A DNA stretch of 18,141 nucleotides from a virus (taxonomy: Duplodnaviria; Heunggongvirae; Uroviricota; Caudoviricetes). The notes beneath the pieces are model-generated. The model had not been told where the DNA came from, ran no database searches, and saw nothing but the letters and a program-made list of their open reading frames with translations. The translations under genes and the position numbers were made by a program. Shown one piece after another: positions 1 through 13,868 of this stretch. Within the stretch, counting starts at the first letter, position 1; the number at the start of each line of letters is the position of its first letter. The DNA is taken from the IMG/VR virus record IMGVR_UViG_2534682108_000010, positions 1-18,141 of that record. One strand, written 5' to 3'.

Positions 1-321
1 CGGCTCAGGGCGGTCATAGGTTTCAGGTAACGGCAGCCCTTCGCCAAAAGCCATACCATTGGACTGACCGGCAAGCGCGATCACATAGTAATATTCTGGC
101 GCAACAGAAGGCGCTGAGGTCGTCGGACGGTTGCCTGACTCCTCTGGTGATGAGATGCTCCCCTCACTCACAACTGGCTGGATGAACTCCGCACCATAAC
201 CAGCTGTCGAAATCAGCGCACTACCATAAGGCTGCCACCCTTCCTTCAGTTTTTGAGTTATTCGTTTCGCAAGGTCTGACGGCGACGCCGCCCTGACCAC
301 GTCATAGTGTTTAAATGCCAT
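1..321 (-). CDS. NanS-p-like sialate O-acetylesterase, N-terminal part only (gene continues beyond the window start)
   Basis: Minus-strand ORF starting at ATG 319-321 with GGAGG RBS (rc of 326-330). Translation MAFKHYDVVRAASPSDLAKRITQKLKEGW... then YYYVIALAGQSNGMAFGEGLPLP, which matches the GQSN esterase motif of NanS/YjhS-type enzymes preceded by a DUF1737-like N-terminus, as in Stx-phage nanS-p. Confidence 0.7.
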   Translation of the reverse strand, partial: MAFKHYDVVRAASPSDLAKRITQKLKEGWQPYGSALISTAGYGAEFIQPVVSEGSISSPEESGNRPTTSAPSVAPEYYYVIALAGQSNGMAFGEGLPLPETYDRPEP

Positions 322-409
322 TATTCCTCCCCTTTCCGGGATTTTCCTCAACAGTTGCGGGCCACGGTCCGGCTACACGGAGAATCAAAAGAGGAGAACC
401 GCAGCCCGC

Positions 410-440
410 AAAACGAAAAAGGCCGCGCAGTTGCGCAGCC
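410..440 (-). terminator. Rho-independent terminator (minus strand)
   Basis: On the minus strand: 8-bp stem ggctgcgc/gcgcggcc with tetraloop aact, followed by TTTTTCGTTTT. Confidence 0.6.
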
Positions 441-540
441 TTATCACAGATGGTAAAAATCAGAACACGATAATAAAAATACCTGATGTATATTCATGCG
501 ACCCGCCCGCCACTCACTGAGGGCTTTTTTTTGCCCATAG

Positions 541-567
541 AAAAGCCCCTCCGGAGAGGGGCTTTTT
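541..567. terminator. Bidirectional intrinsic terminator hairpin
   Basis: gcccctc-cgga-gaggggc hairpin at 545-562 flanked by AAAA on one side and TTTTT on the other. Confidence 0.6.
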
Positions 568-1018
568 ACAGTGGTAGTGTAGACAATTTTGCATGGTGCC
601 GGATGCCTCCCGGTGAATTCTGCAATGACCAGACAGAATCCGCAACTTGCCTATACAATACGCAACCAAACATCTGTCATTATGCCCCGCCTCACAGGGG
701 GATTCACCATGCAAAATCATTTTTAACAAAACAGCATGTTATTCTCCAGTACCCGGCATAATGAAATGTGATGTTCTTAGCATTTTTAAAACCCCGAACT
801 TAGTGGTGATTATTTTTATTAGACACCCCTGTTTCACAGTAACTTTATTTTCTGTTTGGGCCACTCTGGCTCAATACTAAAATTATTAATTATCGACAAA
901 AATATAGTAAATAAATAAACAAGTTCCGAGAAAACCAATAACTATCATTGCTAATGCCAGCATAAATAGTTGTTGTGTGTTTATTTTTACGGTAGTGTAT
1001 TCAAAGTGTTGATTCCTG

Positions 1019-1387
1019 TTATCGCAGGTAATATTCCCGCTCAATAAATGTACCAATCACTTTGTCGTGCATTTCTGTGGATTTCGAATACCCCAGAGTT
1101 TTCCGGTTTAGTCGTTTCAGTCTGTTCCTGAGGTTCAGGTTTTCACGTTCGATGCGTTGCGTATAAAGCTTACCTGTGATGTGTTTTTCATTCGGCAATA
1201 TGTCGTAAGCCCGGAAGTTATCTGTACACCAGAAAGCAACATTAAATCCCGATAACCGCTTCAGTAACTGGCGAAATACCTTTTTACTTCGACGACCAAA
1301 AGCATGGGCAACAATACGTTTGAGACGAGGCTCCCATGCATACCACAGCCAGCGCTGTTGCTTTTTATTGCCGACAAATGACCACAT
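1019..1387 (-). CDS. insB: IS1-family transposase InsB-like ORF (normally expressed as an InsAB' frameshift fusion)
   Basis: Translation ...QRWLWYAWEPRLKRIVAHAFGRR...YTQRIERENLNLRNRLKRLNRKTLGYSKS...HDKVIG aligns by eye with IS1 InsB (QRWLFYAYD...[29 protein letters not shown]...HDKVIG), roughly half identical. Confidence 0.7.
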   Translation of the reverse strand: MWSFVGNKKQQRWLWYAWEPRLKRIVAHAFGRRSKKVFRQLLKRLSGFNVAFWCTDNFRAYDILPNEKHITGKLYTQRIERENLNLRNRLKRLNRKTLGYSKSTEMHDKVIGTFIEREYYLR

Positions 1388-1440
1388 CTCATCAACTTCA
1401 CAGATGAGCTGAATTTTCAGGTCATCCAGCGGCAGTGTGG

Positions 1441-1630
1441 TTACACATCGTGGTGCGAGTTTTTTAATGTGCGCACAACGGCATTAATGCTGATATGCAG
1501 CACCCGTGCGGTGTCACGGATGCCCGCATTGTTCATTGCAAGGTCAACAATTTGCTCTTTCATGCCGTGCTGGCAGGCACGATGATTCGGTTTGCCCACA
1601 AAACGGGCATTTTACGTCAACTTTAGCCAT
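1441..1630 (-). pseudogene. insA: insA-like gene of the IS1-family element, apparently frameshifted
   Basis: ATG at 1628-1630 (rc) gives MAKVDVKCPFCGQTE... which stops after 28 codons; the HTH part (...MKEQIVDLAMNNAGIRDTARVLHISINAVVRTLKNSHHDV, stop 1441-1443) is in a different frame. Confidence 0.5.
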
Positions 1631-1751
1631 TCGCAACACTCAGCAAAAGGAGTAATATTACAACATGATCAACACTTTGAATACTTGCCCATTTTTACCG
1701 ATGAAAGGTAACGCAGAAAAATACTCAACATACAGTCCCCATAATCCTCTA

Positions 1752-1827
1752 TGGAGCGGCCAGCTGGAATCGAACCCGCATCATCAGCCTGGAAGGCCGA
1801 GGTAATAGCCATTATACGATGACCTCA
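1752..1827 (-). tRNA. tRNA-Gly(UCC)-like sequence, probable pseudogene
   Basis: D-arm, anticodon arm (loop CTTCCAG, anticodon UCC) and T-loop closely resemble E. coli glyT, but the 5' acceptor strand (tgaggtc) cannot pair with the 3' strand (tggccgc) and the T-stem has a G-A mismatch. Confidence 0.5.
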
Positions 1828-1904
1828 TGGTGCGCCATACTGGATTCGAACCAGTGACCGATTGCTTAGAAGGCAATTGCTCTGTCAGGCCGAGCTAACA
1901 ACGC
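1828..1904 (-). tRNA. tRNA-Arg (anticodon UCU)
   Basis: Hand-folded cloverleaf: acceptor GCGTTGT/ATGGCGC (with G-U pairs), D-stem GCTC/GAGC, anticodon stem ATTGC/GCAAT with loop CTTCTAA, T-arm ACTGG-TTCGAAT-CCAGT, 3' CCA encoded. Confidence 0.85.
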
Positions 1905-1917
1905 TGAATACCGATAA

Positions 1918-1994
1918 TGGACCGCCATCGGGGACTTGAACCCCGCGCAGCCAGCTTCGAAGGCTGGCGCTCTGTCCCGATGAGCTAATGGCGG
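1918..1994 (-). tRNA. tRNA-Arg (anticodon UCG)
   Basis: Perfect acceptor stem CCGCCAT/ATGGCGG, D-stem GCTC/GAGC, anticodon stem CCAGC/GCTGG with loop CTTCGAA, T-arm CGGGG-TTCAAGT-CCCCG, CCA encoded. Confidence 0.85.
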
Positions 1995-2003
1995 TATCTG
2001 ATA

Positions 2004-2079
2004 TGGTGGCCCTTGCTGGATTTGAACCAGCGACCTGGCGATTATGAGTCGCTCGCTCTCACCACTGAGCTAAAGAGCC
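2004..2079 (-). tRNA. tRNA with CAU anticodon, ileX-like (tRNA-Ile2 / Met-type)
   Basis: Acceptor GGCTCTT/AAGGGCC, D-arm GCTC-AGTGGTGA-GAGC, anticodon loop CTCATAA, T-arm GCTGG-TTCAAAT-CCAGC; from the anticodon arm onward it is nearly identical to my recollection of E. coli ileX. Confidence 0.85.
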
Positions 2080-2241
2080 GGGCGCAGGATAATAACGGTA
2101 CGTAACTAATTCTGCAATATCATCCGTTCTGACTGACTAAATTCTGAACTTCCCTGACCGTCTGCTCAAAACGTTCAGTCTCCAGCTCAACACCAGTTGC
2201 ACGACGTCCCAGCGCCATTGCTGCTTTGACGCTACGGACAT

Positions 2242-2270
2242 AAAAAAGCCAGCCACTGGGGGAGGCTGGC
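2242..2270 (-). terminator. Rho-independent terminator (minus strand) between Q and the tRNA array
   Basis: 7-bp stem gccagcc/ggctggc (2248-2270) with a 9-nt loop, followed on the minus strand by TTTTTT (fwd A-run 2242-2247). Confidence 0.6.
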
Positions 2271-2450
2271 AAACTCGTAGAGCAAAATGCTGTTACGCAA
2301 ACTTCGTTACAGGGTTATCCTGTAATACAAAAAATACACAATATTTAGAAAACTAATAGTGCCATATGAGATTTTTAAGATTTTGTTATTAATTGCGGTC
2401 GTACCTTCCTTTCTGTGTACTTTCCGTATAGCTCACAGGATTCTGGGTAC

Positions 2451-2473
2451 AAAAAAACCCGCGCATCGGCGGG
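2451..2473 (-). terminator. Rho-independent terminator about 50 bp downstream of Q (candidate tR')
   Basis: Minus strand: cccgc-cgatgc-gcggg hairpin followed by TTTTTTT. Its position immediately after Q matches the short pR'-tR' transcript of lambdoid phages. Confidence 0.6.
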
Positions 2474-2520
2474 TTCTGCTGCGTGGCAATGTAACCACTC
2501 TTATCATGATATGCAGATTT

Positions 2521-2955
2521 TTACGATCGTAAACTATTTTTTCGCTGATAAAATACAGAGCTTCTCCCTCCCGGCAATTCACGCTCAACATACCGATCCA
2601 TCTCAAGCCTCACTCCCAGCATCATCAGCATGCCTTCAACAATCCCCTCCGCTTTGTGAAGGCGTTTACCTATACAGGTGTCAGAGCACCCATGTTTCCG
2701 TGCCAGCGCCATGAACGTCTCCCCCAACACGTAGTAATCAACCAGCAAGTCATGCAGATCGCGATTGTTCCGGTAAAGGCGGGCTACGCACCCGCATATC
2801 ACCATCGCATCATCGTCACAACATTGCGGGCGAGATTTTACTTTTGAAGGAATTAATCCCTTAAAACCGGCGGCAATGGACGACCAGGTCACATCTTCAT
2901 GATTATTAGCCGCCCACGCTCCCCAACGCTCAAGAACCATCTGAATATCACGCAT
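2521..2955 (-). CDS. Late-gene antiterminator Q
   Basis: Translation [38 protein letters not shown]... with a Cys-rich region, recognised as a lambdoid Q-family protein; GGAG RBS 8 nt upstream of ATG 2953-2955; the ORF-track start at 2970 is a TTG. Confidence 0.85.
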
Positions 2956-3040
2956 CAACTTACTCCACAAAACTCAGACCAGAACGCCAATTACAAGCAA
3001 AAATCAACAAAACAGTATTAGTTGATTGTTATCTCTGACT

Positions 3041-3181
3041 TCATACTCCTGCTCCTGTCAGTGTTTTGGCGTAATTCTTCAGTATTCGGTAATCGGTCAA
3101 AACAGAACCGGGGAAACGATATAAGCGCAGACGCCCCCAGCGGTGGCGAAGAAGTTCTGCCATATTAAACTCAAACATCAT
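3041..3181 (-). CDS. ylcG: Small nin-region protein, YlcG-like (46 aa)
   Basis: [49 protein letters not shown], with ATG overlapping the rusA stop (ATGA coupling); same position as DLP12 ylcG between rusA and Q. Confidence 0.6.
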
Positions 3182-3540
3182 TCATTCCCCATTTCGGTGA
3201 TGGTCAGTTCCAGCCTCCCACCTTTGGTAACAGGCATCTTCACAACGCGGTAATCAACGACCTGAGCATCATCCAGCCAGAAACCTGCTTTAGTGAGTGC
3301 GTCAAAAGCGGCTTTTTGCAGATTATCCAGGTCACGGCGACGGCGATCCGGCATGTGGCACTCAATGCGGATTTTCACAGGCATAGCCAGGCCGATATCC
3401 AGCATTGCGTTTTTAATGATTCGGGCGACGTTATCGCGGTATGCCTGCCCCTCTGCACTGACGTGCGTGCGCCCGCGATTATGGCGGTAATAGCGATTAT
3501 TGCTCGGAGGCCAGGGTAATGTGATACTGTAGGTATTCAC
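3178..3540 (-). CDS. rusA: Holliday-junction resolvase RusA
   Basis: Translation [42 protein letters not shown]... recognised as RusA; GTG start overlapping the upstream stop. Confidence 0.9.
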
Positions 3541-3827
3541 GCCTTAATAACCCCCTCTTTCAGCCAGATAACCTGTGTTCTCGCCATACCTTCCAGCGCG
3601 CATTCTTTTGCATATGCAGCATCGACAAAATGTGTGCGGCGGTCGATTTCGTCGTGGCAGGCAGAACATGCAATGGTGGCAATCAGGTCTGGCGGTTTGA
3701 TACCGGTACCGCACAATCCAGCCAGCCGGATATGTGCCAGTACAGACGTTTCAGAATTGCCATTACATACGCCAGGGATTCTTACCTGGCATTCCCGACC
3801 ACGCGCTGCTTTTCTCAAATCAGCCAT
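3537..3827 (-). CDS. ybcO: DUF1364-family nin-region protein (YbcO-like)
   Basis: Translation [47 protein letters not shown]...CSACHDEID... recognised as YbcO-like; ATG at 3825-3827 overlaps the ninE stop. Confidence 0.8.
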
Positions 3828-3990
3828 GATTCCTCCTTGCTGCCAGTCGCAACCATTTTTTATCAACCAGGCTAGCGGTATATCCGAGCAGTGTTGGTAT
3901 TTCGGATGGCTTCAGCTCAGGCTTACGCTTACGACGATTTGATACTCTGTAGATGTGTCCGTTCATGACACGAATAAGCGGTGTAGCCAT
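3820..3990 (-). CDS. ninE: NinE-like small protein (56 aa)
   Basis: [59 protein letters not shown]. The C-terminal ...YTASLVDKKWLRLAARR resembles lambda NinE (...YTAHLWDIRWLRRRAR); ATG overlaps the ybcN stop. Confidence 0.6.
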   Translation of the reverse strand: MATPLIRVMNGHIYRVSNRRKRKPELKPSEIPTLLGYTASLVDKKWLRLAARRNHG

Positions 3991-4445
3991 TACGCCTCCT
4001 GCTTGTCACGGAGCTGCTGGAACTCGCAGCTCTGCGGAATAGTCAGATGGCAACCAATATTCATCGCCCAGGCTTCAACCTTACACAGGAAGACATACAT
4101 CTCTCCGGTATCAAGATCGGAGGTATGGCGTAACGACTGGATAGTGGTGATATCACCGGTTACGACATCAACCAGGTCTTTGGTTTCATAACCGAGATAT
4201 GTGTGTTTGAGAGCATCTTTTACCCAAGCTGGAGTGGCGAACGTTTTACCCCTGCTGATGAGGTATTCACTGATTTCGCTGTACCACATGTGGCTGAGTG
4301 CATTCTGGGAAAGACTGCGTTTCTCACGCCACGGTTTAAGCACCATGCGAAAGCATTTGCCTTCCTCCAGATAAGGCTGGATCTGCTGGCCGATAGCGGT
4401 GAAGTTACCACGATGCAATTTGATGCCGTCTTGTGGGAGGTTCAC
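3990..4445 (-). CDS. ybcN: YbcN/NinB-family protein
   Basis: 151-aa ORF with GTG start preceded by GGAGG; the motif [20 protein letters not shown] resembles the NinB RNRSLDQNRKLW region; position and length match DLP12 ybcN. Confidence 0.65.
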
Positions 4446-4478
4446 GCTTCACCTCCGCAGAGGTCAAACGCTGGATGC

Positions 4479-4563
4479 AAAAAATCGCAGGTGCATCTCT
4501 GCATCTGTGAAGGGAGAAGAGAGTTTGGATTGTATGTGCGCATAAACGTCCCCGTTTAGCGCA
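4479..4563. repeat. 85-bp direct repeat, copy A
   Basis: 80 of 85 positions identical to 6413-6497; contains a palindromic hairpin tgcgcataaacg-tccc-cgtttagcgca (10-bp stem with 1-nt bulge, tetraloop). Confidence 0.85.
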
Positions 4564-4639
4564 GAAGTCACCGGAGTTGTTCAAGCTCCAATGGCATGAT
4601 TATGGCTGGTTGATTATTGGAAATCAAATGTGCTGAAAA

Positions 4640-5149
4640 TTAGTCTGCCAAGTCTTCCTCAGTCGCAACTGGGTAATTCCAAATATCAAAAAAAGCTATA
4701 GCCTCCTGCCATTTGCTCCATAAGTTATCAAGTACTTGTGTAGGTTCCGTACTTTTAAAAACAGAATCAGCCGCATCACCGTTATGAACTTCCTCGTACA
4801 GTTCCATTATTAGCAGATTAACAAAGTACTGTTTCAACATTAATGCCTGATTACCTTCTTTCTGCTGGCTATCCTGCTTGATGAGCTCCATCGCCCGTAC
4901 TAGGCACCTGATGATATCCGCTGCATCATTAACGCTCCATTCAGATCCGCGCTTATCTTTAGCTGATGAATTGGCTCTCTCAGCGCAAGCCTTTAAAGAC
5001 TCATAAAGGTAAACTCTATTTTGTAGCTGCAGCGCTTTTTTTGACGTGCACCAACTTGCAAGCGCCGACCCCGCTGCGGCTAATGTGCCAAACGCAGAAA
5101 TGCCTGCTGCTATTGCACTTAAGTCGGCACTGTCAAAGTTCCACATCAT
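4640..5149 (-). CDS. Hypothetical protein with hydrophobic N-terminal segment (putative membrane anchor)
   Basis: 169-aa ORF, ATG with AGGTG RBS; N-terminus LSAIAAGISAFGTLAAAGSALASW is hydrophobic; AT-rich; no family recognised. Confidence 0.5.
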   Translation of the reverse strand: MMWNFDSADLSAIAAGISAFGTLAAAGSALASWCTSKKALQLQNRVYLYESLKACAERANSSAKDKRGSEWSVNDAADIIRCLVRAMELIKQDSQQKEGNQALMLKQYFVNLLIMELYEEVHNGDAADSVFKSTEPTQVLDNLWSKWQEAIAFFDIWNYPVATEEDLAD

Positions 5150-5384
5150 CGTTACACCTTATATAAACACCCCTCAGTAATATCCAATAAGGTATGTGAA
5201 CAATCAATATAATTTATATCCGTATCGGCACATAGCGATTTTAATGCTACTGATAATGGTATCTTTTAGATTATATCGTCCAGTTCCAGTACCCGTATTT
5301 TATGAAATGGACTCGCACATTACCAAAAAAAATGCCAGCACTTCCGTCATCGCAGAATGCTGGCAGTATTTCTAACTAGTGACT

Positions 5385-5993
5385 TTATTGCAACAGATTC
5401 TGACGGAAATATGGTAACACACGACTCCACTTATCATCCTGCCACGGTTGGAATTTTACATGCGCCGTTTCTCTGGCAAGGATTTCTCGCGCCCTGTTGA
5501 GTATCCGAGGATATTCTTGTTCGATTGAAGTGAATCTACCTGCTTCGCGATGCTCTGCGACCTGAAGAAGGGGCGTAACGTTCTGGCAGGCGGTTAACAT
5601 CGTATCACTTGCTCGCCATAACCAGGCGAGTGTGCAAAGTTCGTTATCAGTGAATTGTTTTGTGATTGGGGATTGTTGAACTTCTCGATCGAGAATATCC
5701 AGAACCCAGCGGCGGAATTCTTTGGCCACAGGAGTACGAGCAAACATGGCGATCAAATGGGCTCCGCGAAGGCTAAATACTCGAGACTCCTGCATTCCAC
5801 GAGGGGTGGTCACTTTGACCACCCTTGTCATCATATCTGTGAATTCATCCGAGTGCCGAGAGTAAATGCGCTGAACTGCTTTATCGTCCGCATATTCCAG
5901 TGCTAAACCAACTTCAGTGGCAGTAAGCCAAATTCTGTTATTGTGGCAAATCGGGGTAAACGTCGTTTTGTGGAATGCTAATTGAGTAGTCAT
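5385..5993 (-). CDS. Bro-N domain protein (antirepressor / Roi-like)
   Basis: N-terminal region FHKTTFTPICHNNRIWLTATEVGLALEYADDKAV...RVFSLRGAHLIAMFARTPVAKEFRRWVLDIL matches the Bro-N pattern; ATG with GAGGTG RBS. Confidence 0.7.
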   Translation of the reverse strand: MTTQLAFHKTTFTPICHNNRIWLTATEVGLALEYADDKAVQRIYSRHSDEFTDMMTRVVKVTTPRGMQESRVFSLRGAHLIAMFARTPVAKEFRRWVLDILDREVQQSPITKQFTDNELCTLAWLWRASDTMLTACQNVTPLLQVAEHREAGRFTSIEQEYPRILNRAREILARETAHVKFQPWQDDKWSRVLPYFRQNLLQ

Positions 5994-6149
5994 AGTATCA
6001 CCTCATCAGGTTAACCATCACCACCAACGACGCCAATCGACTGGTGGTGAACTGTGTAAGGTTGGCGTAACCGGCTACTCAAACCCGGCGCTTCCGAAGA
6101 AGCCCTCACACAGCCCACCATAATTTGGGCATAGCCGTGCTTAGCGCAC

Positions 6150-6170
6150 AAAAAAACCGCTTAACGCGGT
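6150..6170 (-). terminator. Possible rho-independent terminator (minus strand)
   Basis: Minus strand: accgc-gttaa-gcggt hairpin followed by TTTTTTT. Confidence 0.45.
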
Positions 6171-6412
6171 ATGCGTTGAGTAGTATCCCGGGACGCCAAT
6201 CCCGTGTGCCGATTTTGCGGCAACGCACAGAATATAGCGCCGGATAAATCATGTCGTCAACCCCAGTAAATGGACACCATGATGATCACAGCCATAGCTG
6301 CTACAACAGTTACAACTACCTCAGGCCAAAACATAACGATTTCCATATCACCTTTAGCCGCCAGACGAATAGAGACTCCCAATTCTGGCTGTCGAAGTAA
6401 AACACCGAATGT

Positions 6413-6497
6413 AAAAAATCGTAGGTGCATTTCTGCATCTGTGAATGGAGATGAGAGTTTGGATTGTGTGTGCGCATAAACGTCCCCGTTTAGCGCA
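6413..6497. repeat. 85-bp direct repeat, copy B
   Basis: 80 of 85 positions identical to 4479-4563, with the same internal hairpin. Confidence 0.85.
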
Positions 6498-6805
6498 ACC
6501 CCACCACCGGGTGTTCAGGCCGACAGTAACTATATTATTCCCTACTGATTTTTGAAAATCAAAGGTCTTTATACGTCACACGAGAGCAAATATTTCCGAA
6601 GAAGAAACCTTTCGCCTTGAAAGGATAAAGAGTTCATTTCATAAATTGAAATATTCAATAAGAATATTGCAAAAAATGAAATTATTTACTAGCGAGTCTA
6701 TCTAACTGATAATTATGAAGATTGTAAGCGGTAGCAATCACCCGCATACACATTGAACAGGATTTAATACAAAACGTCTTAAATTGTCCGTAAGGAATAG
6801 CACGA

Positions 6806-8308
6806 ATGACTCAAACTCCTCTATTACTTGCAATCATATTTTTATTGGTTGTTCTTGTTCTTTATATAGCTGCAATCAAACGCATCAAAAAAATACAATT
6901 AGAATTAAGTGATAGCAATCAAAAAAATGAAGAATACAAATCTCGCTTTGCAGATTATTTTAATGTAGAAGAAGAATGTAAGAAGCTTATTGAGAAAACA
7001 GAGCAAGAATGCTCCATAATAAAAGAAGAATCCCTAAAAGTAAAAGAAAATGCCAATAATGAACTAACAAACACCATTGAAAAAATGGATGGTATCAATA
7101 AACAAATCCAAGAGCTAAGAAGAACTTATAAAGAGAAGAAAGAAATATATGATAAACTAGTAAGGCAAATTTCTATTTATTCAGAAGATGTTGAGCTAGC
7201 CGAACTAGGATTTTACGAACCTCATTTTAATTTTGAAGATTCAGAGCAATTTAAAAACAAAATAAAATCCATCAGGGATGAACAGAAATTAATGCTGCGG
7301 GATAAAACCCACTCTGGCGCAGTATATTGTACAACCCAATGGACTGTTGAAGGCTCTCGAGCAGAGGGTAAAAAAATGACAGACAGAAATATCAGGCTAA
7401 CTACTAGAGCATTTAATAATGAATGTGATGCTGCAATTAGCAATTGCACGTGGAAAAACATCACTAAAATGGAAGAACGCATCACAAAGGCATTTGAGGC
7501 CATAAATAAACTAAACGAGCAAAATCACATATATATAAACACTAAATACCTCAATAAAAAACTTGAGGAATTGTGGCTTACCCATGAATATCGTGAGCAA
7601 AAACAGAAAGAAAAAGAAGAACAGGCAGAAATAAGGGCACAAATGAGAGAGGAGGAGCGTGCACAACGAGAAATAGAAAAGGCCATGCAAGACGCAGAGG
7701 CAGAAGAGCGCCGTTATAAAAAAGCAATTGAAGCTGCAAGAAAGGAAATGGAAAAAGTTACTGGTGACATGAAGCAGCGCCTCGAAAATCGCATTGCCGA
7801 ACTAGAACAGAGTTTGTCGCAGGCTGAATCAAAGCATCAAAGAGCATTATCCATGGCACAACAAACCAAACAAGGTCATGTTTATATTATTTCGAACATA
7901 GGTTCTTTTGGGGAGAATGTTTATAAAATAGGCATGACACGACGTCTTGATCCGCAAGACCGTGTAAATGAGCTCGGTGATGCATCTGTTCCTTTTATTT
8001 TTGATGTACATGCCATGATTTATTCGGAGGACGCTCCATCATTAGAAAAAAAACTACATGATGTCTTCGATAAAAAGAGAGTCAATCTTGTAAATCGTAG
8101 AAAAGAGTTTTTCTATGTTACTCTGGATGAGATCAAAGAAGCTGTTAAAAAACACTCTGATTCAGAAATTGAATTTATTGAGACAGCAGTCGCAAAAGAC
8201 TTTAATGAGTCATTGGCTATTCGTAATCATGAAAATAAAAAAAGTGACAACAGCAACTCATCAATTATACCTGAGCGAAAAATCCCAGAGTTTGCAGATG
8301 CAATTTAA
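6806..8308 (+). CDS. Membrane-anchored coiled-coil protein with C-terminal T5orf172 (GIY-YIG-like) domain, DUF4041-type architecture; candidate accessory/defence gene
   Basis: 500-aa ORF, ATG with AAGGA RBS; N-terminal hydrophobic helix LLLAIIFLLVVLVLYIAAI; long K/E-rich predicted coiled-coil; C-terminal GHVYIISNIGSFGENVYKIGMTRRLDPQDRVNELGDASVPFIFDVHAMIYSEDAPSLEKKLHDVFDKKRVN...EFFYV, recalled as the T5orf172 pattern; visibly AT-rich; opposite strand to all neighbouring genes. Confidence 0.8.
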   Translation: MTQTPLLLAIIFLLVVLVLYIAAIKRIKKIQLELSDSNQKNEEYKSRFADYFNVEEECKKLIEKTEQECSIIKEESLKVKENANNELTNTIEKMDGINKQIQELRRTYKEKKEIYDKLVRQISIYSEDVELAELGFYEPHFNFEDSEQFKNKIKSIRDEQKLMLRDKTHSGAVYCTTQWTVEGSRAEGKKMTDRNIRLTTRAFNNECDAAISNCTWKNITKMEERITKAFEAINKLNEQNHIYINTKYLNKKLEELWLTHEYREQKQKEKEEQAEIRAQMREEERAQREIEKAMQDAEAEERRYKKAIEAARKEMEKVTGDMKQRLENRIAELEQSLSQAESKHQRALSMAQQTKQGHVYIISNIGSFGENVYKIGMTRRLDPQDRVNELGDASVPFIFDVHAMIYSEDAPSLEKKLHDVFDKKRVNLVNRRKEFFYVTLDEIKEAVKKHSDSEIEFIETAVAKDFNESLAIRNHENKKSDNSNSSIIPERKIPEFADAI

Positions 8309-8556
8309 TTAATTTGTAGTAGCAATAAAGCAGGCATCGTTGAGAATATTTTGTCAGCGATGCTTACTTCTCTAACAAAAACGGTGATTACCAACGAACT
8401 AACGGACTTCAGGTAATCATAAGACAAATGGAACGACTCTCCGGTGATTAGATCCCTGCAATAACAGTAATTTTCTACTAACTGAAAAATCTTTAACTGC
8501 CGCTCCTATTTCTAAGCTGACTGCTAGATTACATGGTGTGTTACCGATGAAAACCG

Positions 8557-8859
8557 TCACAGCAAGTTTAAGTTCATATCTCCATACACTGCCAACACTC
8601 GTTTCATCGCGGCACTCTGGCGACACTCCTTGAAAATCAGATTCGTGCTCACCTTTCCTTCCCGTTCTTCCCTGGTAGCGAAGCGGTAATACACCGTTCG
8701 CCAGACCTTACCATCAATGACTAAGATTCCTGCCCGTGCCATTTTAGCCGCAGCCTGATTTATACTGGTTACTGTTGCGCCTGTTACCGCAGCAACGTCC
8801 TGCGCACAGAAGCTCTTATGCGTCCCCAGGTAATGAATAATTGCCTCTTTGCCCGTCAT
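8557..8859 (-). CDS. ren: Ren-like protein
   Basis: Translation MTGKEAIIHYLGTHKSFCAQDVAAVTGATVTSINQAAAKMARAGILVIDGKVWRTVYYRFATREEREGK... recognised as lambda Ren; ATG overlaps the P stop. Confidence 0.8.
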   Translation of the reverse strand: MTGKEAIIHYLGTHKSFCAQDVAAVTGATVTSINQAAAKMARAGILVIDGKVWRTVYYRFATREEREGKVSTNLIFKECRQSAAMKRVLAVYGDMNLNLL

Positions 8860-9557
8860 ACAGTTGCTCCTTTCAGTCCGAACTTCGCTTTGATTTCTGC
8901 GATCTTCGCCAGAGCCTGTGCACGATTTAGAGGTCTACCGCCCATGACAGGAAGTTGTTTTACTGGTTCAGGTATAGCCTCACCACGGTTAATTCGTGCG
9001 GTCATACAGGACAGTTCATCGGCAGCCTTGCGCCGTAATTCCGCGTCAGTCAACGCATTGGTCCGCATGTTCTGGTACAGGTTGGTAACCAACCAGTAGT
9101 GCGCGTTTGATTTCCACGGATAAGACTCTGCGTCCGGATACAGGCCACGCTTCCGGCAATACTCGTAAACCATATCAACCAGCTCGCTGGCGTTTGGCAG
9201 CCCGGCGGTAACGGATGCTTCTTCCCGGCACCAGGCAACAAACTGCCCGGGTGATGGCAGGAATGGTCGATTCTGCCGACGGGCTACGCGCATTCCTGCG
9301 TTAACCTGTTCCATTGTGGTGATCCCGTTTTCCCGGAAAGCCAGAACCCACTGGCGGCGGATTTCGTTCAGTTCGTTCTGATCCCGGTTAGCCAGGCTCG
9401 CAGGGAAAGTTGCCAGTAACTGGCTGAACACACCGTTGATGATCTGCGCTACCTGCTGTACCTGCGGCTTTTCGTCGTACTGTTCCGGCATATTGTTGGC
9501 GATCCGGCGCATCTGCTCACGGTCAAAGTTAATCATCTGTGCGGCGATGTTTTTCAT
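8856..9557 (-). CDS. P: Replication protein P (DnaB helicase loader)
   Basis: 233-aa translation MKNIAAQMINFDREQMRRIANNMPEQYDEKPQVQQVAQIINGVFSQLLATF... essentially identical to lambda P as I recall it. Confidence 0.95.
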   Translation of the reverse strand: MKNIAAQMINFDREQMRRIANNMPEQYDEKPQVQQVAQIINGVFSQLLATFPASLANRDQNELNEIRRQWVLAFRENGITTMEQVNAGMRVARRQNRPFLPSPGQFVAWCREEASVTAGLPNASELVDMVYEYCRKRGLYPDAESYPWKSNAHYWLVTNLYQNMRTNALTDAELRRKAADELSCMTARINRGEAIPEPVKQLPVMGGRPLNRAQALAKIAEIKAKFGLKGATV

Positions 9558-11367: not shown

Positions 11368-11477
11368 TATCAATTCCTATTGGTATTGCAATGAATGAAT
11401 AATAGCAATGCGTATTAATCCAAGCAATAGCAAAACGTGTTTTGACCATCAATACGCAAGCGTATAAATTAAAACTT
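11368..11477. promoter_or_regulatory. Immunity control region (OR-like): divergent promoters and operator repeats
   Basis: Minus-strand promoter TTGCTT-17 bp-TATTAT (-10 at 11399-11404, rc) for the Cro-like gene; plus-strand TTGACC (11442-11447)-15 bp-TATAAA (11463-11468) just upstream of the repressor ATG (11478), so the leader is very short; repeated AATAGCAAT/TATTGC motifs and a 14-bp palindrome ATACGCAAGCGTAT. Confidence 0.6.
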
Positions 11478-12170
11478 ATGAAAAAAGAAACTCTTGCTGA
11501 TCGCTTAAACCTAGCGATGGAACAATCTGGAATGTCTCAAGGCGCTCTTGCAAAGGCGTCTGGCGTAGCTCAACCCACAATCTGGAGACTGACAAGCGGC
11601 AACGCGCGCGGCTCAACAAAAATTGTTGAAATAGCTAATGCATTGGGTGTTCGAACAGAATGGCTCTCATCAGGCATAGGCCCGATGAGAAATGACGGTC
11701 AACAATCAGGGAAGCCTGCTGTCAGCCATTCCAAATACTTCAAAATTGACGTTCTTGATATAGAAGTCAGTGCCGGGCCGGGTGTAATCAACCGTGAGTT
11801 TGTAGAAGTTCTACGCTCGGTTGAGTACTCGTTTGACGATGCTCGTCACATGTTCGATGGCAGGAAGGCGGAAAATATCCGCATCATTAACGTGCGTGGT
11901 GACAGCATGTCAGGAACGATCGAACCAGGTGATCTGCTGTTCGTTGATATCACGGTTAAATCTTTCGACGGTGATGGTATCTATGCGTTTCTGTACGACG
12001 ACACAGCCCATGTAAAGCGTCTGCAAATGATGAAGGATAAGCTGCTGGTTATCTCTGATAACAAGAGCTACTCACCGTGGGACCCGATCGAGAAAGACGA
12101 GATGAACCGGGTGTTCATCTTCGGTAAGGTTATTGGGAGCATGCCGCAGACGTATAGGAAGCATGGGTAG
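11478..12170 (+). CDS. CI-like repressor (HTH plus S24 LexA-like autopeptidase domain)
   Basis: From ATG 11478: MKKETLADRLNLAMEQSGMSQGALAKASGVAQPTIWRL... (HTH); C-terminal VRGDSMSGTIEPGD and HVKRL recalled as the S24 Ser/Lys pattern; the ORF-track start at 11442 is a TTG. Confidence 0.85.
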   Translation: MKKETLADRLNLAMEQSGMSQGALAKASGVAQPTIWRLTSGNARGSTKIVEIANALGVRTEWLSSGIGPMRNDGQQSGKPAVSHSKYFKIDVLDIEVSAGPGVINREFVEVLRSVEYSFDDARHMFDGRKAENIRIINVRGDSMSGTIEPGDLLFVDITVKSFDGDGIYAFLYDDTAHVKRLQMMKDKLLVISDNKSYSPWDPIEKDEMNRVFIFGKVIGSMPQTYRKHG

Positions 12171-12216: not shown

Positions 12217-13065
12217 ATGTCTTCGATTTGGGGAAAAAAGTTGATGACGAAAGAACAAGAGTCAAACACTGATGAAGTGAAACCAGAGCAAGGAAGTTTG
12301 TTTGAATTAGAATTTCATGAATATACACCTTCAAGCTTAGGCACAGCACACCTTTCTGGTTTCGCTATTGCCACTGATGAAATGGAATATGCAGTTAAAA
12401 GCATGCGCTCCACCCCACCTTTTCCTGTACAAAACCCAACTCAAGTACCGGCAGCGGAATGGTTTTGCACAAATTTAGCTGAAAAATGCGGCATCGCTAC
12501 ACCTGTGTGCAAAATTCTCAAGTGTATTGCTAATGGGGAGTATGTTTTTGGCTCTCGCATAGAGTTTTCAGCCTGGAAATCTGGTCTCAATAGTCCTCAA
12601 TGGATAAATTTGCTCTCAAATGCTTCTGAATCCTTAAAGAAGCAACTCTGGGCAATTTATGCATTTGATCAGTTTGTATATAACATTGACAGACACCTCA
12701 ACAACTACTTATACATGGAAAACACCCGAGGCAATGTTATAGTTAAAACATTCGATTTTAGTCTAAGCTCTTTTGTTATAGGCTGGCCACGAAATACCCC
12801 TCATATACTACCAACAGACTCCAGTACAACAACAAACTGGACGATTGCTAAACAATTCATTGGCGACACTGATGATCTGAGAAAGTGCGCATTATCTGTC
12901 CTTGACAAAATTGAAAAAATTGGAGTTGAGGCTATATCTGATATACTTAACTCTATGCCTGAAGCATGGATGCCACCAATGCATAAGGAGTATTTTTTGA
13001 AGTGGTGGGACAGCGAGGAGCGAATCGATAGGCTAAATGCCATAAGACTGGAGATAACATCTTGA
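12217..13065 (+). CDS. Hypothetical protein with kinase-like catalytic-loop motif (HipA / PI3-PI4-kinase-like); candidate defence gene A
   Basis: 282-aa ORF 46 bp downstream of the repressor, AAGAGG RBS; motif NIDRHLNN followed 21 residues later by FDFS resembles the N-x-D-x-H-x-x-N ... D catalytic pattern of HipA-type kinases; AT-rich. Confidence 0.75.
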   Translation: MSSIWGKKLMTKEQESNTDEVKPEQGSLFELEFHEYTPSSLGTAHLSGFAIATDEMEYAVKSMRSTPPFPVQNPTQVPAAEWFCTNLAEKCGIATPVCKILKCIANGEYVFGSRIEFSAWKSGLNSPQWINLLSNASESLKKQLWAIYAFDQFVYNIDRHLNNYLYMENTRGNVIVKTFDFSLSSFVIGWPRNTPHILPTDSSTTTNWTIAKQFIGDTDDLRKCALSVLDKIEKIGVEAISDILNSMPEAWMPPMHKEYFLKWWDSEERIDRLNAIRLEITS

Positions 13066-13868
13066 AAACTTTCAAATACAGCTTAATCAGAGTTACACCG
13101 AACTTAGAGAAAGGTGAAACGATTAACGTTGGTTTGATCGTTTACCATGACTCTGACATAGACGTACGTATGCTCAATTCAGTTTCAAAACTTAAAGCGA
13201 TTGACAAAGATCTTACCTTAGATTACTTAGAGGATCTTTCGACCTCGCTTTTTGATTTGTCACAAAAAATCAACAATGCTGAACTTCTTCCTTGTCTTTT
13301 TAAGGGAGCATTATCGTTATCGTCATTTGGCATGTTCACTCTTCAAGCCAACGAAGATTACGAAGCTAAAGTTACTGATCTAATGAATCGGTTAGTAAAC
13401 CCACAAAAACAGCCACATAAACAGTTGAAAAAAAAGGTTTTTTCTGAATTAAAATCCACCTTTATACAACATGGAATTTTCAGTAAGTATTTTGAAGATC
13501 TTTCCCAACATAAAATCGTAGCTAATTATCCAATTAGTAATGAAGAAGGGTTAGTTGCAGATTTTTTGTTAAAAAATGGCAAATACCATCTTACAGAAAC
13601 ATTAGATTTTCGTTCTGAAAATATAAAAAAACAAATGGGTGAAGCTGCGATAAGTGTTTTAACAATTACTAAAGCCTACGAATTATACAATTCAAATATT
13701 GATTCATTTGTAATTTTTGCCGCTGAAACGACAGCACAAGAAAAGTCAGCAAAACAGCAGCTAAATCTACTGGAAAAACACGCTGATAATCTTATCAACG
13801 CATATAGCAAAGAAGACATGCGTTCATATTACGAAAAGATGCTGAATGCTGCCTCTATGTTACAGTAG
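13062..13868 (+). CDS. Hypothetical protein, partner of the kinase-like gene; candidate defence gene B
   Basis: 268-aa ORF whose TTG start overlaps the upstream stop (TTGA), GGAG RBS 8 nt upstream; N-terminus MKTFKYSLIRVTPNLEKGETINVGLIVYHD; followed by terminator 13896-13922; AT-rich. Confidence 0.75.
   Translation: MKTFKYSLIRVTPNLEKGETINVGLIVYHDSDIDVRMLNSVSKLKAIDKDLTLDYLEDLSTSLFDLSQKINNAELLPCLFKGALSLSSFGMFTLQANEDYEAKVTDLMNRLVNPQKQPHKQLKKKVFSELKSTFIQHGIFSKYFEDLSQHKIVANYPISNEEGLVADFLLKNGKYHLTETLDFRSENIKKQMGEAAISVLTITKAYELYNSNIDSFVIFAAETTAQEKSAKQQLNLLEKHADNLINAYSKEDMRSYYEKMLNAASMLQ

Follow-up and report, generated by a model that had tools for sequence, protein, structure and literature searches.

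A 933W-type late-gene control region without Shiga toxin genes, and with a chimeric tRNA-Arg gene at its cassette boundary, in an E. coli lambdoid prophage

Introduction

Does a late-gene region that is laid out like that of a Shiga toxin phage, and that carries no toxin gene, mark a place from which stx has been lost? The question is raised by one end of an 18,141-nucleotide Caudoviricetes sequence (IMG/VR record IMGVR_UViG_2534682108_000010; the whole analysed stretch is called the window here), in which an antiterminator gene, tRNA genes and a nanS-p esterase gene follow one another. A sequence-only reading had described this end as an Stx-phage-like late region whose cargo slot, between the tRNA genes and nanS-p, stood empty and interrupted by an insertion sequence (IS), its cargo lost or never acquired. 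Lambdoid prophages that are stx-negative and have a Q, tRNA and nanS-p layout are already documented, and such a layout matters little in itself; nanS-p occurs in non-Stx prophages, and IS elements occur in the interval between stx and nanS-p (PMC10462455). As we describe below, the locus is of an ordinary, known kind, the late-gene control region of a Shiga-toxin-free E. coli prophage, and its informative parts are the contents of the slot and the two genes that bound it.

Results

Late-region layout and regulatory signals

The whole locus lies on the minus strand and runs from Q through pR', qut and tR', a second terminator and the genes for tRNA-Ile2, Arg and Arg to the nanS-p gene (Table 1). 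This bears out the order and the common strand that had been proposed, although Q itself, at 2955..2521, lies beyond positions 1-2079, where the sequence-only reading had placed the layout. A near-identical sequence (99.99%) is already in RefSeq, in an O157:H16 genome (locus L001), from which the window parts inside nanS-p. After 107 codons nanS-p runs past the window edge. In L001 the gene annotated at the nanS-p position, with a later start, encodes a sialate O-acetylesterase and is followed by holin, lysozyme and lysis-protein genes; these lysis genes lie beyond the window.

Table 1. Features of the late-gene control region, in order of their positions in the window
Feature	Positions	Strand	Evidence
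nanS-p 5' end (DUF1737, linker, SASA esterase start)	1..321	-	Pfam PF08410, E=3e-19
Intrinsic terminator in nanS-p leader	419..442	-	terminator scan: 10-bp stem, 7 GC pairs; conserved in relatives
STnc100/PasD-family sRNA gene, right cassette boundary	533..739	-	Rfam RF02076, 141.6 bits, E=1.5e-32
Terminator of STnc100	546..559	-	terminator scan
AT-rich spacer of tRNA-Gly module	740..885	-	GC about 0.30-0.34; less conserved, indels among relatives
Small ORF, 3' part (transmembrane-like segment and stop codon)	886..982	-	alignment with uninterrupted relatives
Target-site duplication copies, 8 bp, ATTTTTAC on the + strand	983..990 and 1691..1698	.	direct sequence reading
Defective IS1-family element, 700 bp	991..1690	-	Pfam PF12759 (HTH_Tnp_IS1) and PF03400 (DDE_Tnp_IS1); inverted repeats
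Small hydrophobic ORF (44-45 codons), 5' part, 13 codons	1691..1731	-	reconstruction, alignment with uninterrupted relatives
Degenerate tRNA-Gly (TCC)	1752..1826	-	ARAGORN; Rfam 38.2 bits, gathering score 29
tRNA-Arg (TCT; argO), chimeric, left cassette boundary	1828..1904	-	three-way alignment; Rfam
tRNA-Arg (TCG; argN)	1918..1994	-	ARAGORN; Rfam 58.2 bits; 97.4% identity to 933W argN
tRNA-Ile2 (anticodon CAT; ileZ)	2004..2079	-	ARAGORN; Rfam tRNA 70.4 bits; PGAP tRNA-Ile; 98.7% identity to 933W ileZ
pT, putative promoter of tRNA genes	2089..2117	-	28/29 identical to 933W annotation
DNA methyltransferase gene remnant (C-terminal fragment)	2120..2233	-	PGAP pseudogene in L001
Second intrinsic terminator, upstream of tRNA genes	2242..2270	-	29/29 identical to 933W annotation
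tR' intrinsic terminator	2451..2473	-	23/23 identical to 933W annotation
qut (Q-utilisation) site	2485..2492	-	8/8 identical to 933W annotation
Late promoter pR'	2506..2533	-	28/28 identical to 933W annotation
Antiterminator Q, Q933 type	2521..2955	-	Pfam PF06530, 174 bits, E=1e-51; annotated in L001

The Stx2a phage 933W (AF125520) has the same order on the same strand, comprising Q933, pR', qut, tR', ileZ-argN-argO, stxAB, STnc100/AsxR and L0105 (nanS-p). Identity to 933W is 100% for pR', qut and both terminators, 97% for pT and 97-99% for ileZ and argN. The Q proteins are 95% identical in amino acids; PGAP gives Q 144 residues, and the mechanical ORF reaches a TTG at 2970. In a promoter scan pR' was the sole minus-strand sigma-70 match at its place. 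The nanS-p identity, which had been proposed from the letters, is supported both by the DUF1737 domain and by 100 of 107 N-terminal residues (93%) shared with 933W L0105, the GQSN motif included. Unlike 933W, the window lacks stxAB and a pre-stx terminator and does not match AsxR, and from int to nin its early part resembles Lambdavirus, 71% of the window aligning with phage PhiR26_1 at 95% identity. The likeness to Stx phages is restricted to the late module. The description of a toxin-free locus with the late architecture of 933W holds, with near-identical regulatory signals and stx absent.

The elements of lambdoid late control are all present in the window: Q and, ahead of the cargo site, pR', qut and tR'. 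By analogy with other lambdoid phages, Q would load onto RNA polymerase at pR'/qut after induction, and the modified polymerase would then pass the terminators, the tRNA genes, the cassette site (probably including the IS) and the terminators of STnc100 and of the nanS-p leader, so that read-through transcription would reach nanS-p and the lysis genes.

Search for stx

StxA2 and StxB2 of 933W, the protein queries used, gave in tblastn against the window a best match of E=0.35, inside the IS and on the wrong strand. A sensitive blastn search of the window with 1.4 kb of 933W cassette DNA returned only chance matches of 12-31 bp. A distant-mode comparison of the slot with 50,697 phage records, several hundred of them from Stx1 and Stx2 phages, matched only the tRNA-Gly, this DNA-level search being the one that covers Stx1 phages. 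Neither an stx remnant nor a deletion scar was found in the slot. As a separate matter of classification, assignment to the Stx-converting phages requires stxA and stxB between Q/tRNA and nanS-p/lysis, and it was rejected for the window, which carries neither. Within the literature collection searched, no papers were found on ileZ, argN and argO together with stx.

Contents of the slot

The slot is not empty, as had been supposed. It holds a module of ∼390 bp, made up of a tRNA-Gly, a small ORF and an AT-rich spacer, and beyond it a gene for an STnc100 sRNA, which the sequence-only reading had missed. Several of the features listed there were confirmed, namely the terminator hairpins (in a scan), AT-rich DNA at ∼700-1000 with a GC of 0.30-0.34, the IS1-family insertion with both transposase domains, inverted repeats and target duplication, and a tRNA-Gly-like pseudogene, which is real but weak.

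The STnc100 match is full length (model positions 1-206, threshold 47 bits), and the gene is found in the corresponding place in 933W and in five other loci. In 933W it lies 75 nt after stxB, as has been reported for its distance downstream of stx2 (PMC12370729), and its context here, a lambdoid prophage region running from Q, tRNA genes and cargo to an esterase gene, agrees with published descriptions (bioRxiv 10.64898/2026.05.13.724894; PMC12370729). The anti-sRNAs AgvB and AsxR abut STnc100 in locus L013 and in 933W; a search for them in the window found none at E<=1.

The tRNA-Gly scores lower in Rfam than its relatives do (46.6-62.7 bits), carries the mismatches A2.G71 in the acceptor stem and G51.A63 in the T stem, and has a minimum free energy (MFE) fold that is not a cloverleaf (z=-0.02); PGAP annotates the gene in relatives and omits it in L001. 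The neighboring argO is a chimera. In a three-way alignment its 5' acceptor arm is of the 933W type and its 3' arm of the type found in A8, which indicates a recombination junction at this place. Its Rfam score is 57.3 bits compared with 65.8-69.3 bits in relatives, and its MFE fold forms the acceptor stem only in part. The stem and core mutations of tRNA-Gly and argO would fit decay of these genes while the prophage was resident.

The IS has 23-bp terminal inverted repeats, read directly from the sequence, and retains the A6C programmed-frameshift motif. Its repeats and its 8-bp duplication agree with the IS1 family, in which they measure about 23 bp and 8-9 bp, respectively. The same element, with the same inverted repeats and motif, is found at 99.3% identity on E. 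coli plasmids p12A2 (NZ_CP128591) and NZ_AP042479. Relative to the p12A2 copy the window element lacks 1 bp of the leader and 86 bp of insA, which causes a frameshift, and we consider it defective because it measures 700 bp rather than the 787 bp of the p12A2 copy and lacks this part of insA. An autonomous element has an intact insA and an InsAB' fusion, and the element in the window has neither.

The element splits a frame that is uninterrupted in relatives, so that the statement that the slot holds no credible ORF is questionable. The frame has 44-45 codons, begins 20-23 nt after tRNA-Gly and would start at TTG 1728..1726 or ATG 1731..1729. A word-index search matched its product to seven E. 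coli proteins (P0001-P0007), which are unnamed, 'hypothetical' or 'putative membrane'; one of them, P0005, deposited from E. coli 3006, is a product of the IS-ORF fusion.

Relatives of the locus

Homology to 933W extends over window positions 2957..1827 (Q to the end of argO) at 94%. A gap follows, in which the sequences diverge between mid-argO and the 5' end of STnc100; there homology resumes, at positions 730..2 and 78%, corresponding to a point 87 bp after the stxB stop. On the Q side of this gap the closest relative, at 96.8-97%, is the stx-negative O157:H7 prophage type represented, for example, by strains 7.1_Anguil (NZ_CP076232, 4263708-4273818) and Al Ain. It shares with the window the nin genes ybcN, ninE, DUF1364 (ybcO), rusA and ylcG, and like the window it has tRNA-Ile, Arg and Arg, STnc100 and nanS-p, and no stx. 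Unlike the window it has no tRNA-Gly, small ORF or IS. Its stretch from argO to STnc100 is essentially empty, consisting of a terminator and about 40 bp, with 511 bp from argO to nanS-p, and it carries AgvB convergent to STnc100. In stx-negative O157:H7 prophages the flanks of the 933W stx cassette lie ∼40 bp apart.

Within the gap the relatives are a different set of prophages, with Arg(TCT) followed by Gly(TCC), in A8, 2012C-4221, CFIAFB20140388 and STEC299 and as the second prophage of O157:H16 Res13-Lact-PEA12-26. In these, tRNA-Gly, small ORF, spacer and STnc100 follow one another as in the window, at 83-99.5% identity, and all inspected copies are stx-negative. Over the IS-free 388-bp slot core identity reaches 98-99.5% in A8, CFIAFB20140388 and 2012C-4221, and at least 80% of this core is covered in 22 of 5,426 genomes. 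These prophages differ from the window in having other Q types, no ileZ or argN, an uninterrupted small ORF and a better-scoring tRNA-Gly (46.6-62.7 bits); upstream they have a full-length DNA methyltransferase gene, where the window keeps only the remnant at 2120..2233. A second switch of closest relative falls inside STnc100. Further occupants of the site are a TolA-like CDS in strain M3 and iraM in STEC299.

Discussion

The region described here is very probably the late-operon leader of an stx-negative mosaic lambdoid prophage. The stx-negative matches to the slot core and the ∼40-bp spacing of the flanks in O157:H7 prophages together argue strongly that the interval from argO to STnc100 is an exchangeable cassette (moron) site, which may be empty (∼100 bp, in stx-negative O157:H7 prophages), hold stxAB (in 933W) or hold the ∼390-bp tRNA-Gly and ORF module (here). 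We propose that homologous recombination inside argO brought this module together with a Q933-type regulatory module and so produced the chimeric tRNA gene. Later an IS1-family element would have transposed in the ordinary way into the small ORF, giving rise to the 8-bp duplication, and would then have lost 86 bp of insA and become immobile.

Against its own account of the locus the sequence-only reading had set two observations, an end-to-end alignment of the interval with stx-negative prophages and a NanS-p identity left unsupported by alignment; the first was made here and the second was not. Its suggestion that cargo had been lost is not supported, given a module 98-99.5% identical in stx-negative prophages, an IS that is a simple insertion and nearest Q-tRNA relatives that are stx-negative, and no Shiga toxin gene can be shown to have once been part of the window copy. 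Loss could have come about by replacement, if an ancestral Stx2-type Q933 phage had exchanged the segment from mid-argO to nanS-p, stxAB with it, for that of a resident stx-negative prophage. The chimeric argO does point to replacement of the downstream segment by recombination, and the Q module, which shares identical regulatory signals with the Stx2a phage 933W, may have had an stx-bearing ancestor. Moreover, between the 3' part of STnc100 and the nanS-p start the window is, in the alignment, near-identical to the second prophage of the O157:H16 genome (L005), a pattern that suggests exchange among prophages of a single cell. We nevertheless regard such a loss as unlikely, as no trace of stx appeared in the protein, DNA or phage-record searches and the Q-tRNA module has its nearest relatives, at 97%, in stx-negative O157:H7 prophages that share the nin region of the window, 933W reaching 94%, so that the module needs no Stx-phage ancestor. 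Far less probable still is removal of cargo by the IS, through an adjacent deletion or through recombination between two IS copies. IS1 elements cause adjacent deletions and this one sits within the slot, yet it is flanked by an intact 8-bp direct target duplication, the rejoined flanks reproduce the uninterrupted sequence of other strains at 99.5% identity, and the near-identical genome has a single copy of the element. The intact duplication and the contiguity of the flanks in relatives show that the element is not a deletion scar.

Whether the exchanged module encodes a protein is a more evenly balanced matter. There is only slightly less than an even chance that the slot is purely non-coding, the small ORF being a chance frame in conserved tRNA-trailer or AT-rich DNA and the IS having hit nothing functional. 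The variable sites of the frame fall 7/5/8 over the three codon positions with no third-position excess (p=0.70), PGAP leaves it unannotated in every inspected locus, Pfam, NCBIfam and PHROGs hold no significant family match, and a profile search of 1.84 billion protein representatives found only five cluster representatives. Its pN/pS ranges from 0.09 to 0.81, calculated on very few sites. On the other hand, the frame is open without indels in eight of eight aligned copies and is 88-91% identical across lineages, while the adjoining 160 bp are only 73-76% identical and gapped. Its start is TTG, GTG or ATG according to lineage, 7 nt after a GGGA/GGGGA motif, and the position of its stop is kept as TAA or TGA. 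The frame also encodes a 19-residue segment with a mean Kyte-Doolittle hydropathy of 2.6. It is thus possible that the small ORF is a gene for a 44-aa membrane peptide. The joint reading, in which argO and STnc100 serve as homologous anchors for cassette swaps and the small ORF is a lysogenic-conversion gene, is offered tentatively and is open to considerable doubt.

For risk assessment, the locus combines a high-expression control module of the Q933 type with the absence of toxin genes. The small ORF, unannotated and narrowly distributed, is of value as a candidate moron; if it is a gene, it would be transcribed with the tRNA genes from pT and freed by tRNA 3' processing. Exchangeable as the site between argO and STnc100 very probably is, the prophages compared here give a clean three-state view of the stx insertion site, bounded by these two genes. 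The chimeric argO is valuable as a recombination footprint and, if the joint reading is true, would be the direct footprint of an exchange by which cassettes, stxAB among them, pass between lambdoid prophages.

Late regulatory module and tRNA array

The late operon runs from high to low coordinates, since every feature named in the sequence-only reading is on the minus strand. The layout that it described, Q followed by terminators, a tRNA array and nanS-p, is real: Q matches PF06530, pR', qut, tR' and the second terminator are identical to those of Stx2a phage 933W (AF125520), ARAGORN and Rfam both call the tRNA genes (n = 4), and the nanS-p product is identical to the 933W NanS-p homologue L0105 at 100/107 positions, including the GQSN motif at the esterase domain start (only 107 codons of nanS-p fall within the window). 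The range of 1-2079 assigned to this layout contains the tRNAs and the nanS-p start but not Q. Window 2957..1827 aligns without gaps to 933W, from Q to the argO end, at 94% identity, and features annotated in 933W were carried onto the window through this alignment. The pR' site was also recovered by an independent promoter scan. The second terminator and pT are separated by a 114-bp DNA methyltransferase gene remnant (2120-2233, minus strand), in a place where the gene is full-length in A8-type prophages, which have an Arg-Gly tRNA pair (A8, 2012C-4221, CFIAFB20140388).

Features of the late region and the interval downstream of argO
Feature	Position	Strand	Evidence
Q	2955..2521	-	PF06530, 174 bits; 95% protein identity to 933W Q
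pR'	2533..2506	-	100% identical to 933W annotation
qut	2492..2485	-	100% identical to 933W annotation
tR'	2473..2451	-	100% identical to 933W annotation
Second terminator	2270..2242	-	100% identical to 933W annotation
pT, putative tRNA promoter	2117..2089	-	28/29 identical to 933W
tRNA-Ile2 (CAT)	2079..2004	-	ARAGORN, Rfam
tRNA-Arg (TCG)	1994..1918	-	ARAGORN, Rfam
tRNA-Arg (TCT), argO	1904..1828	-	ARAGORN, Rfam
tRNA-Gly (TCC)	1826..1752	-	ARAGORN, Rfam
IS1-family element	991-1690		InsA-HTH and IS1 DDE domains; 23-bp terminal inverted repeats
AT-rich DNA	about 700-1000		
STnc100-family sRNA gene	739..533	-	full length; 141.6 bits, E=1.5e-32
STnc100 own terminator	559..546	-	
nanS-p leader terminator	442..419	-	conserved
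nanS-p start	ORF from 321	-	DUF1737, E=3e-19

From the integrase gene, the remaining window continues through recombination genes, a cI-like repressor, O, P, ren and nin genes. This non-late part is Lambdavirus-like, with 95% identity to phage PhiR26_1 across 71% of the window, and by sequence comparison Stx-phage likeness is limited to the late regulatory module. E. coli O157:H16 strain Res13-Lact-PEA12-26 (NZ_CP062876) carries a prophage that is 99.99% identical to window 9000..268, and the two diverge within nanS-p between 268 and 99. Relative to that genome, where the PGAP start of the esterase gene is a later one, window positions 99-268 form a mosaic breakpoint in nanS-p around the DUF1737-SASA linker and the SASA domain start.

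Occupants of the argO-to-STnc100 interval

Homology to 933W ends at the argO 3' end and returns at the STnc100 5' end (window 730), 87 bp past the stxB stop. We found no stx-like sequence between argO and STnc100 at the protein or DNA level, and the earlier description of a toxin-free relative is right. The further proposal that the cargo slot is empty is not supported, as it holds a tRNA-Gly and small ORF module that is 98-99.5% identical in stx-negative prophages (A8, CFIAFB20140388 and 2012C-4221, over a 388-bp core without the IS). This core is covered to at least 80% in 22 genomes, and the copies inspected are all stx-negative, carry the Arg-Gly tRNA pair before nanS-p and have Q types different from that of the window. 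Against 50,697 phage records searched in distant mode, tRNA-Gly was the sole match of the slot.

The nearest relative of the Q-tRNA module is likewise not an Stx phage but a prophage without stx that many O157:H7 strains carry (96.8-97% identity) and that shares the ybcN, ninE, ybcO, rusA, ylcG and Q genes. With nearest relatives of both module and slot core stx-negative, loss of cargo is also unsupported. In the O157:H7 prophage, ~40 bp separate argO and the terminator found ahead of stx in 933W from the STnc100 promoter region, and on alignment this arrangement is what the site of the 933W stx cassette looks like when truly empty. Comparison of the empty, stxAB and tRNA-Gly/small-ORF occupants therefore gives at least three allelic states of the interval. 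Other cargo is found nearby, as a TolA-like CDS in strain M3 and as iraM after STnc100 in STEC299. In the E. coli M3 locus (L012 4856-5319), STnc100 is present as two tandem copies and the TolA-like CDS sits downstream of the small ORF and ahead of nanS-p, which makes it a further cargo variant of the same site.

Hairpins, AT-rich DNA, a tRNA-Gly-like gene and an IS had been correctly listed for the interval, with the full-length STnc100 gene overlooked. STnc100 follows stxB at a distance of 75 nt in 933W and precedes nanS-p in all related loci examined, in agreement with its reported position downstream of stx (PMC12370729) and with the link of STnc100/PasD sRNAs to prophage esterase genes (2026 preprint, 10.64898/2026.05.13.724894). 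The anti-sRNA genes AsxR, in 933W (L002 4243-4295), and AgvB, in the stx-negative O157:H7 prophage (L013 5946-6007), adjoin STnc100 in convergent orientation. At the corresponding place (~470-532, plus strand) the window differs in sequence and has no AgvB/AsxR match even at E<=1.

The argO gene is chimeric: its 5' acceptor arm (GCGTTGT) and the spacer upstream of it are of 933W type, its 3' acceptor arm (ATGGCGC) and anticodon-loop base of A8 type. Its acceptor stem has three G.U pairs, and it scores 57.3 bits vs 65.8-69.3 in relatives. Inside STnc100 the closest relative changes from A8 type to the type of a second prophage in the same O157:H16 genome (L005). These two junctions show that the downstream segment was acquired via homologous exchange; hence a remote stx-bearing ancestor, though improbable, may have existed. 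However, such an ancestor is not required, given that the Q module has its closest relatives among stx-negative prophages.

tRNA-Gly, small ORF and IS element

The putative tRNA-Gly-like pseudogene was fairly labeled as such. At 38.2 bits it exceeds the Rfam gathering score of 29 and is the lowest-scoring copy in its lineage (46.6-62.7 bits in relatives), with an A2.G71 acceptor-stem mismatch (C2 in relatives), a G51.A63 T-stem mismatch and a minimum-energy fold that is not a cloverleaf. PGAP annotates it in relatives and not in the near-identical genome.

Joining the IS flanks restores a 44-45-codon ORF (1731..1691 + 982..886) encoding MLSIFLRYLSSVKINTQQLFMLALAMIVIGFLGTCLFIYYIFVDN. In favour of coding, in 8 aligned copies the frame is open and without indels, at 88-91% identity between lineages, while the following 160 bp are gapped at 73-76% identity. 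The start position is TTG, GTG or ATG, 7 nt 3' of a GGGA/GGGGA motif, the stop is retained as TAA or TGA, and the product includes a 19-residue segment of strong hydrophobicity. Against coding, variable sites of the ORF showed no third-position bias, a search for family matches found none, and this tiny family was found in E. coli records only. We consider the case for coding about evenly balanced.

The IS is flanked by the 8-bp direct duplication ATTTTTAC (983-990 and 1691-1698) and is 99.3% identical to a 787-bp copy on plasmid p12A2, with 86 bp missing within insA. This gap shifts the frame upstream of the A6C frameshift motif, which is retained, and the IS is therefore a fossil, defective and present as a single copy. 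It is a rare element, occurring in 4 of 5,426 complete E. coli genomes. The insertion is present in at least one further sequenced strain, since database protein P0005 of E. coli 3006 (56 aa) is identical to the product of the window's IS-ORF fusion frame (886-1056, minus strand). If the small ORF is a gene, the IS has inactivated it.

Genes outside the late region

On the plus strand, opposite to the late operon, the nin region downstream of ren encodes a 500-aa protein (6806-8308) that carries DUF4041 and T5orf172/MUG113 domains and matches the PD-Lambda-1 anti-phage defence model (658 bits). Also within the nin region, an 89-bp direct repeat (93% identical, 4475-4563 and 6409-6497) brackets a P22AR-C-terminal-domain gene and a 169-aa ORF without family match. 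At 12217-13868 (plus strand), immediately after the gene for the cI-like repressor (11442-12170), two proteins are encoded, a HipA-like kinase of 282 aa and a DUF3037 protein of 268 aa. Their position is equivalent to that of lambda rexAB, so the two are likely a defence or toxin pair.

Late transcription and placement of the locus

The promoter, the qut site and the terminators are present and conserved, as are the genes for the tRNAs, the sRNA and the esterase. From lambdoid biology, pR' transcripts would halt at tR' in a lysogen, and after induction Q-modified polymerase would pass all terminators and the 700-bp IS to reach nanS-p and the lysis genes. The IS is unlikely to be a block to late transcription. 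In the lysogen, pT could also express the tRNAs and anything directly downstream.

Overall, the sequence-only observation was largely correct. Non-Stx lambdoid prophages with nanS-p are a well-known class (PMC10462455, PMC8065619), and the locus is an ordinary member of it with a near-identical copy already in RefSeq. What is mildly new is limited to the chimeric argO and to the cassette allele with tRNA-Gly and the small ORF.
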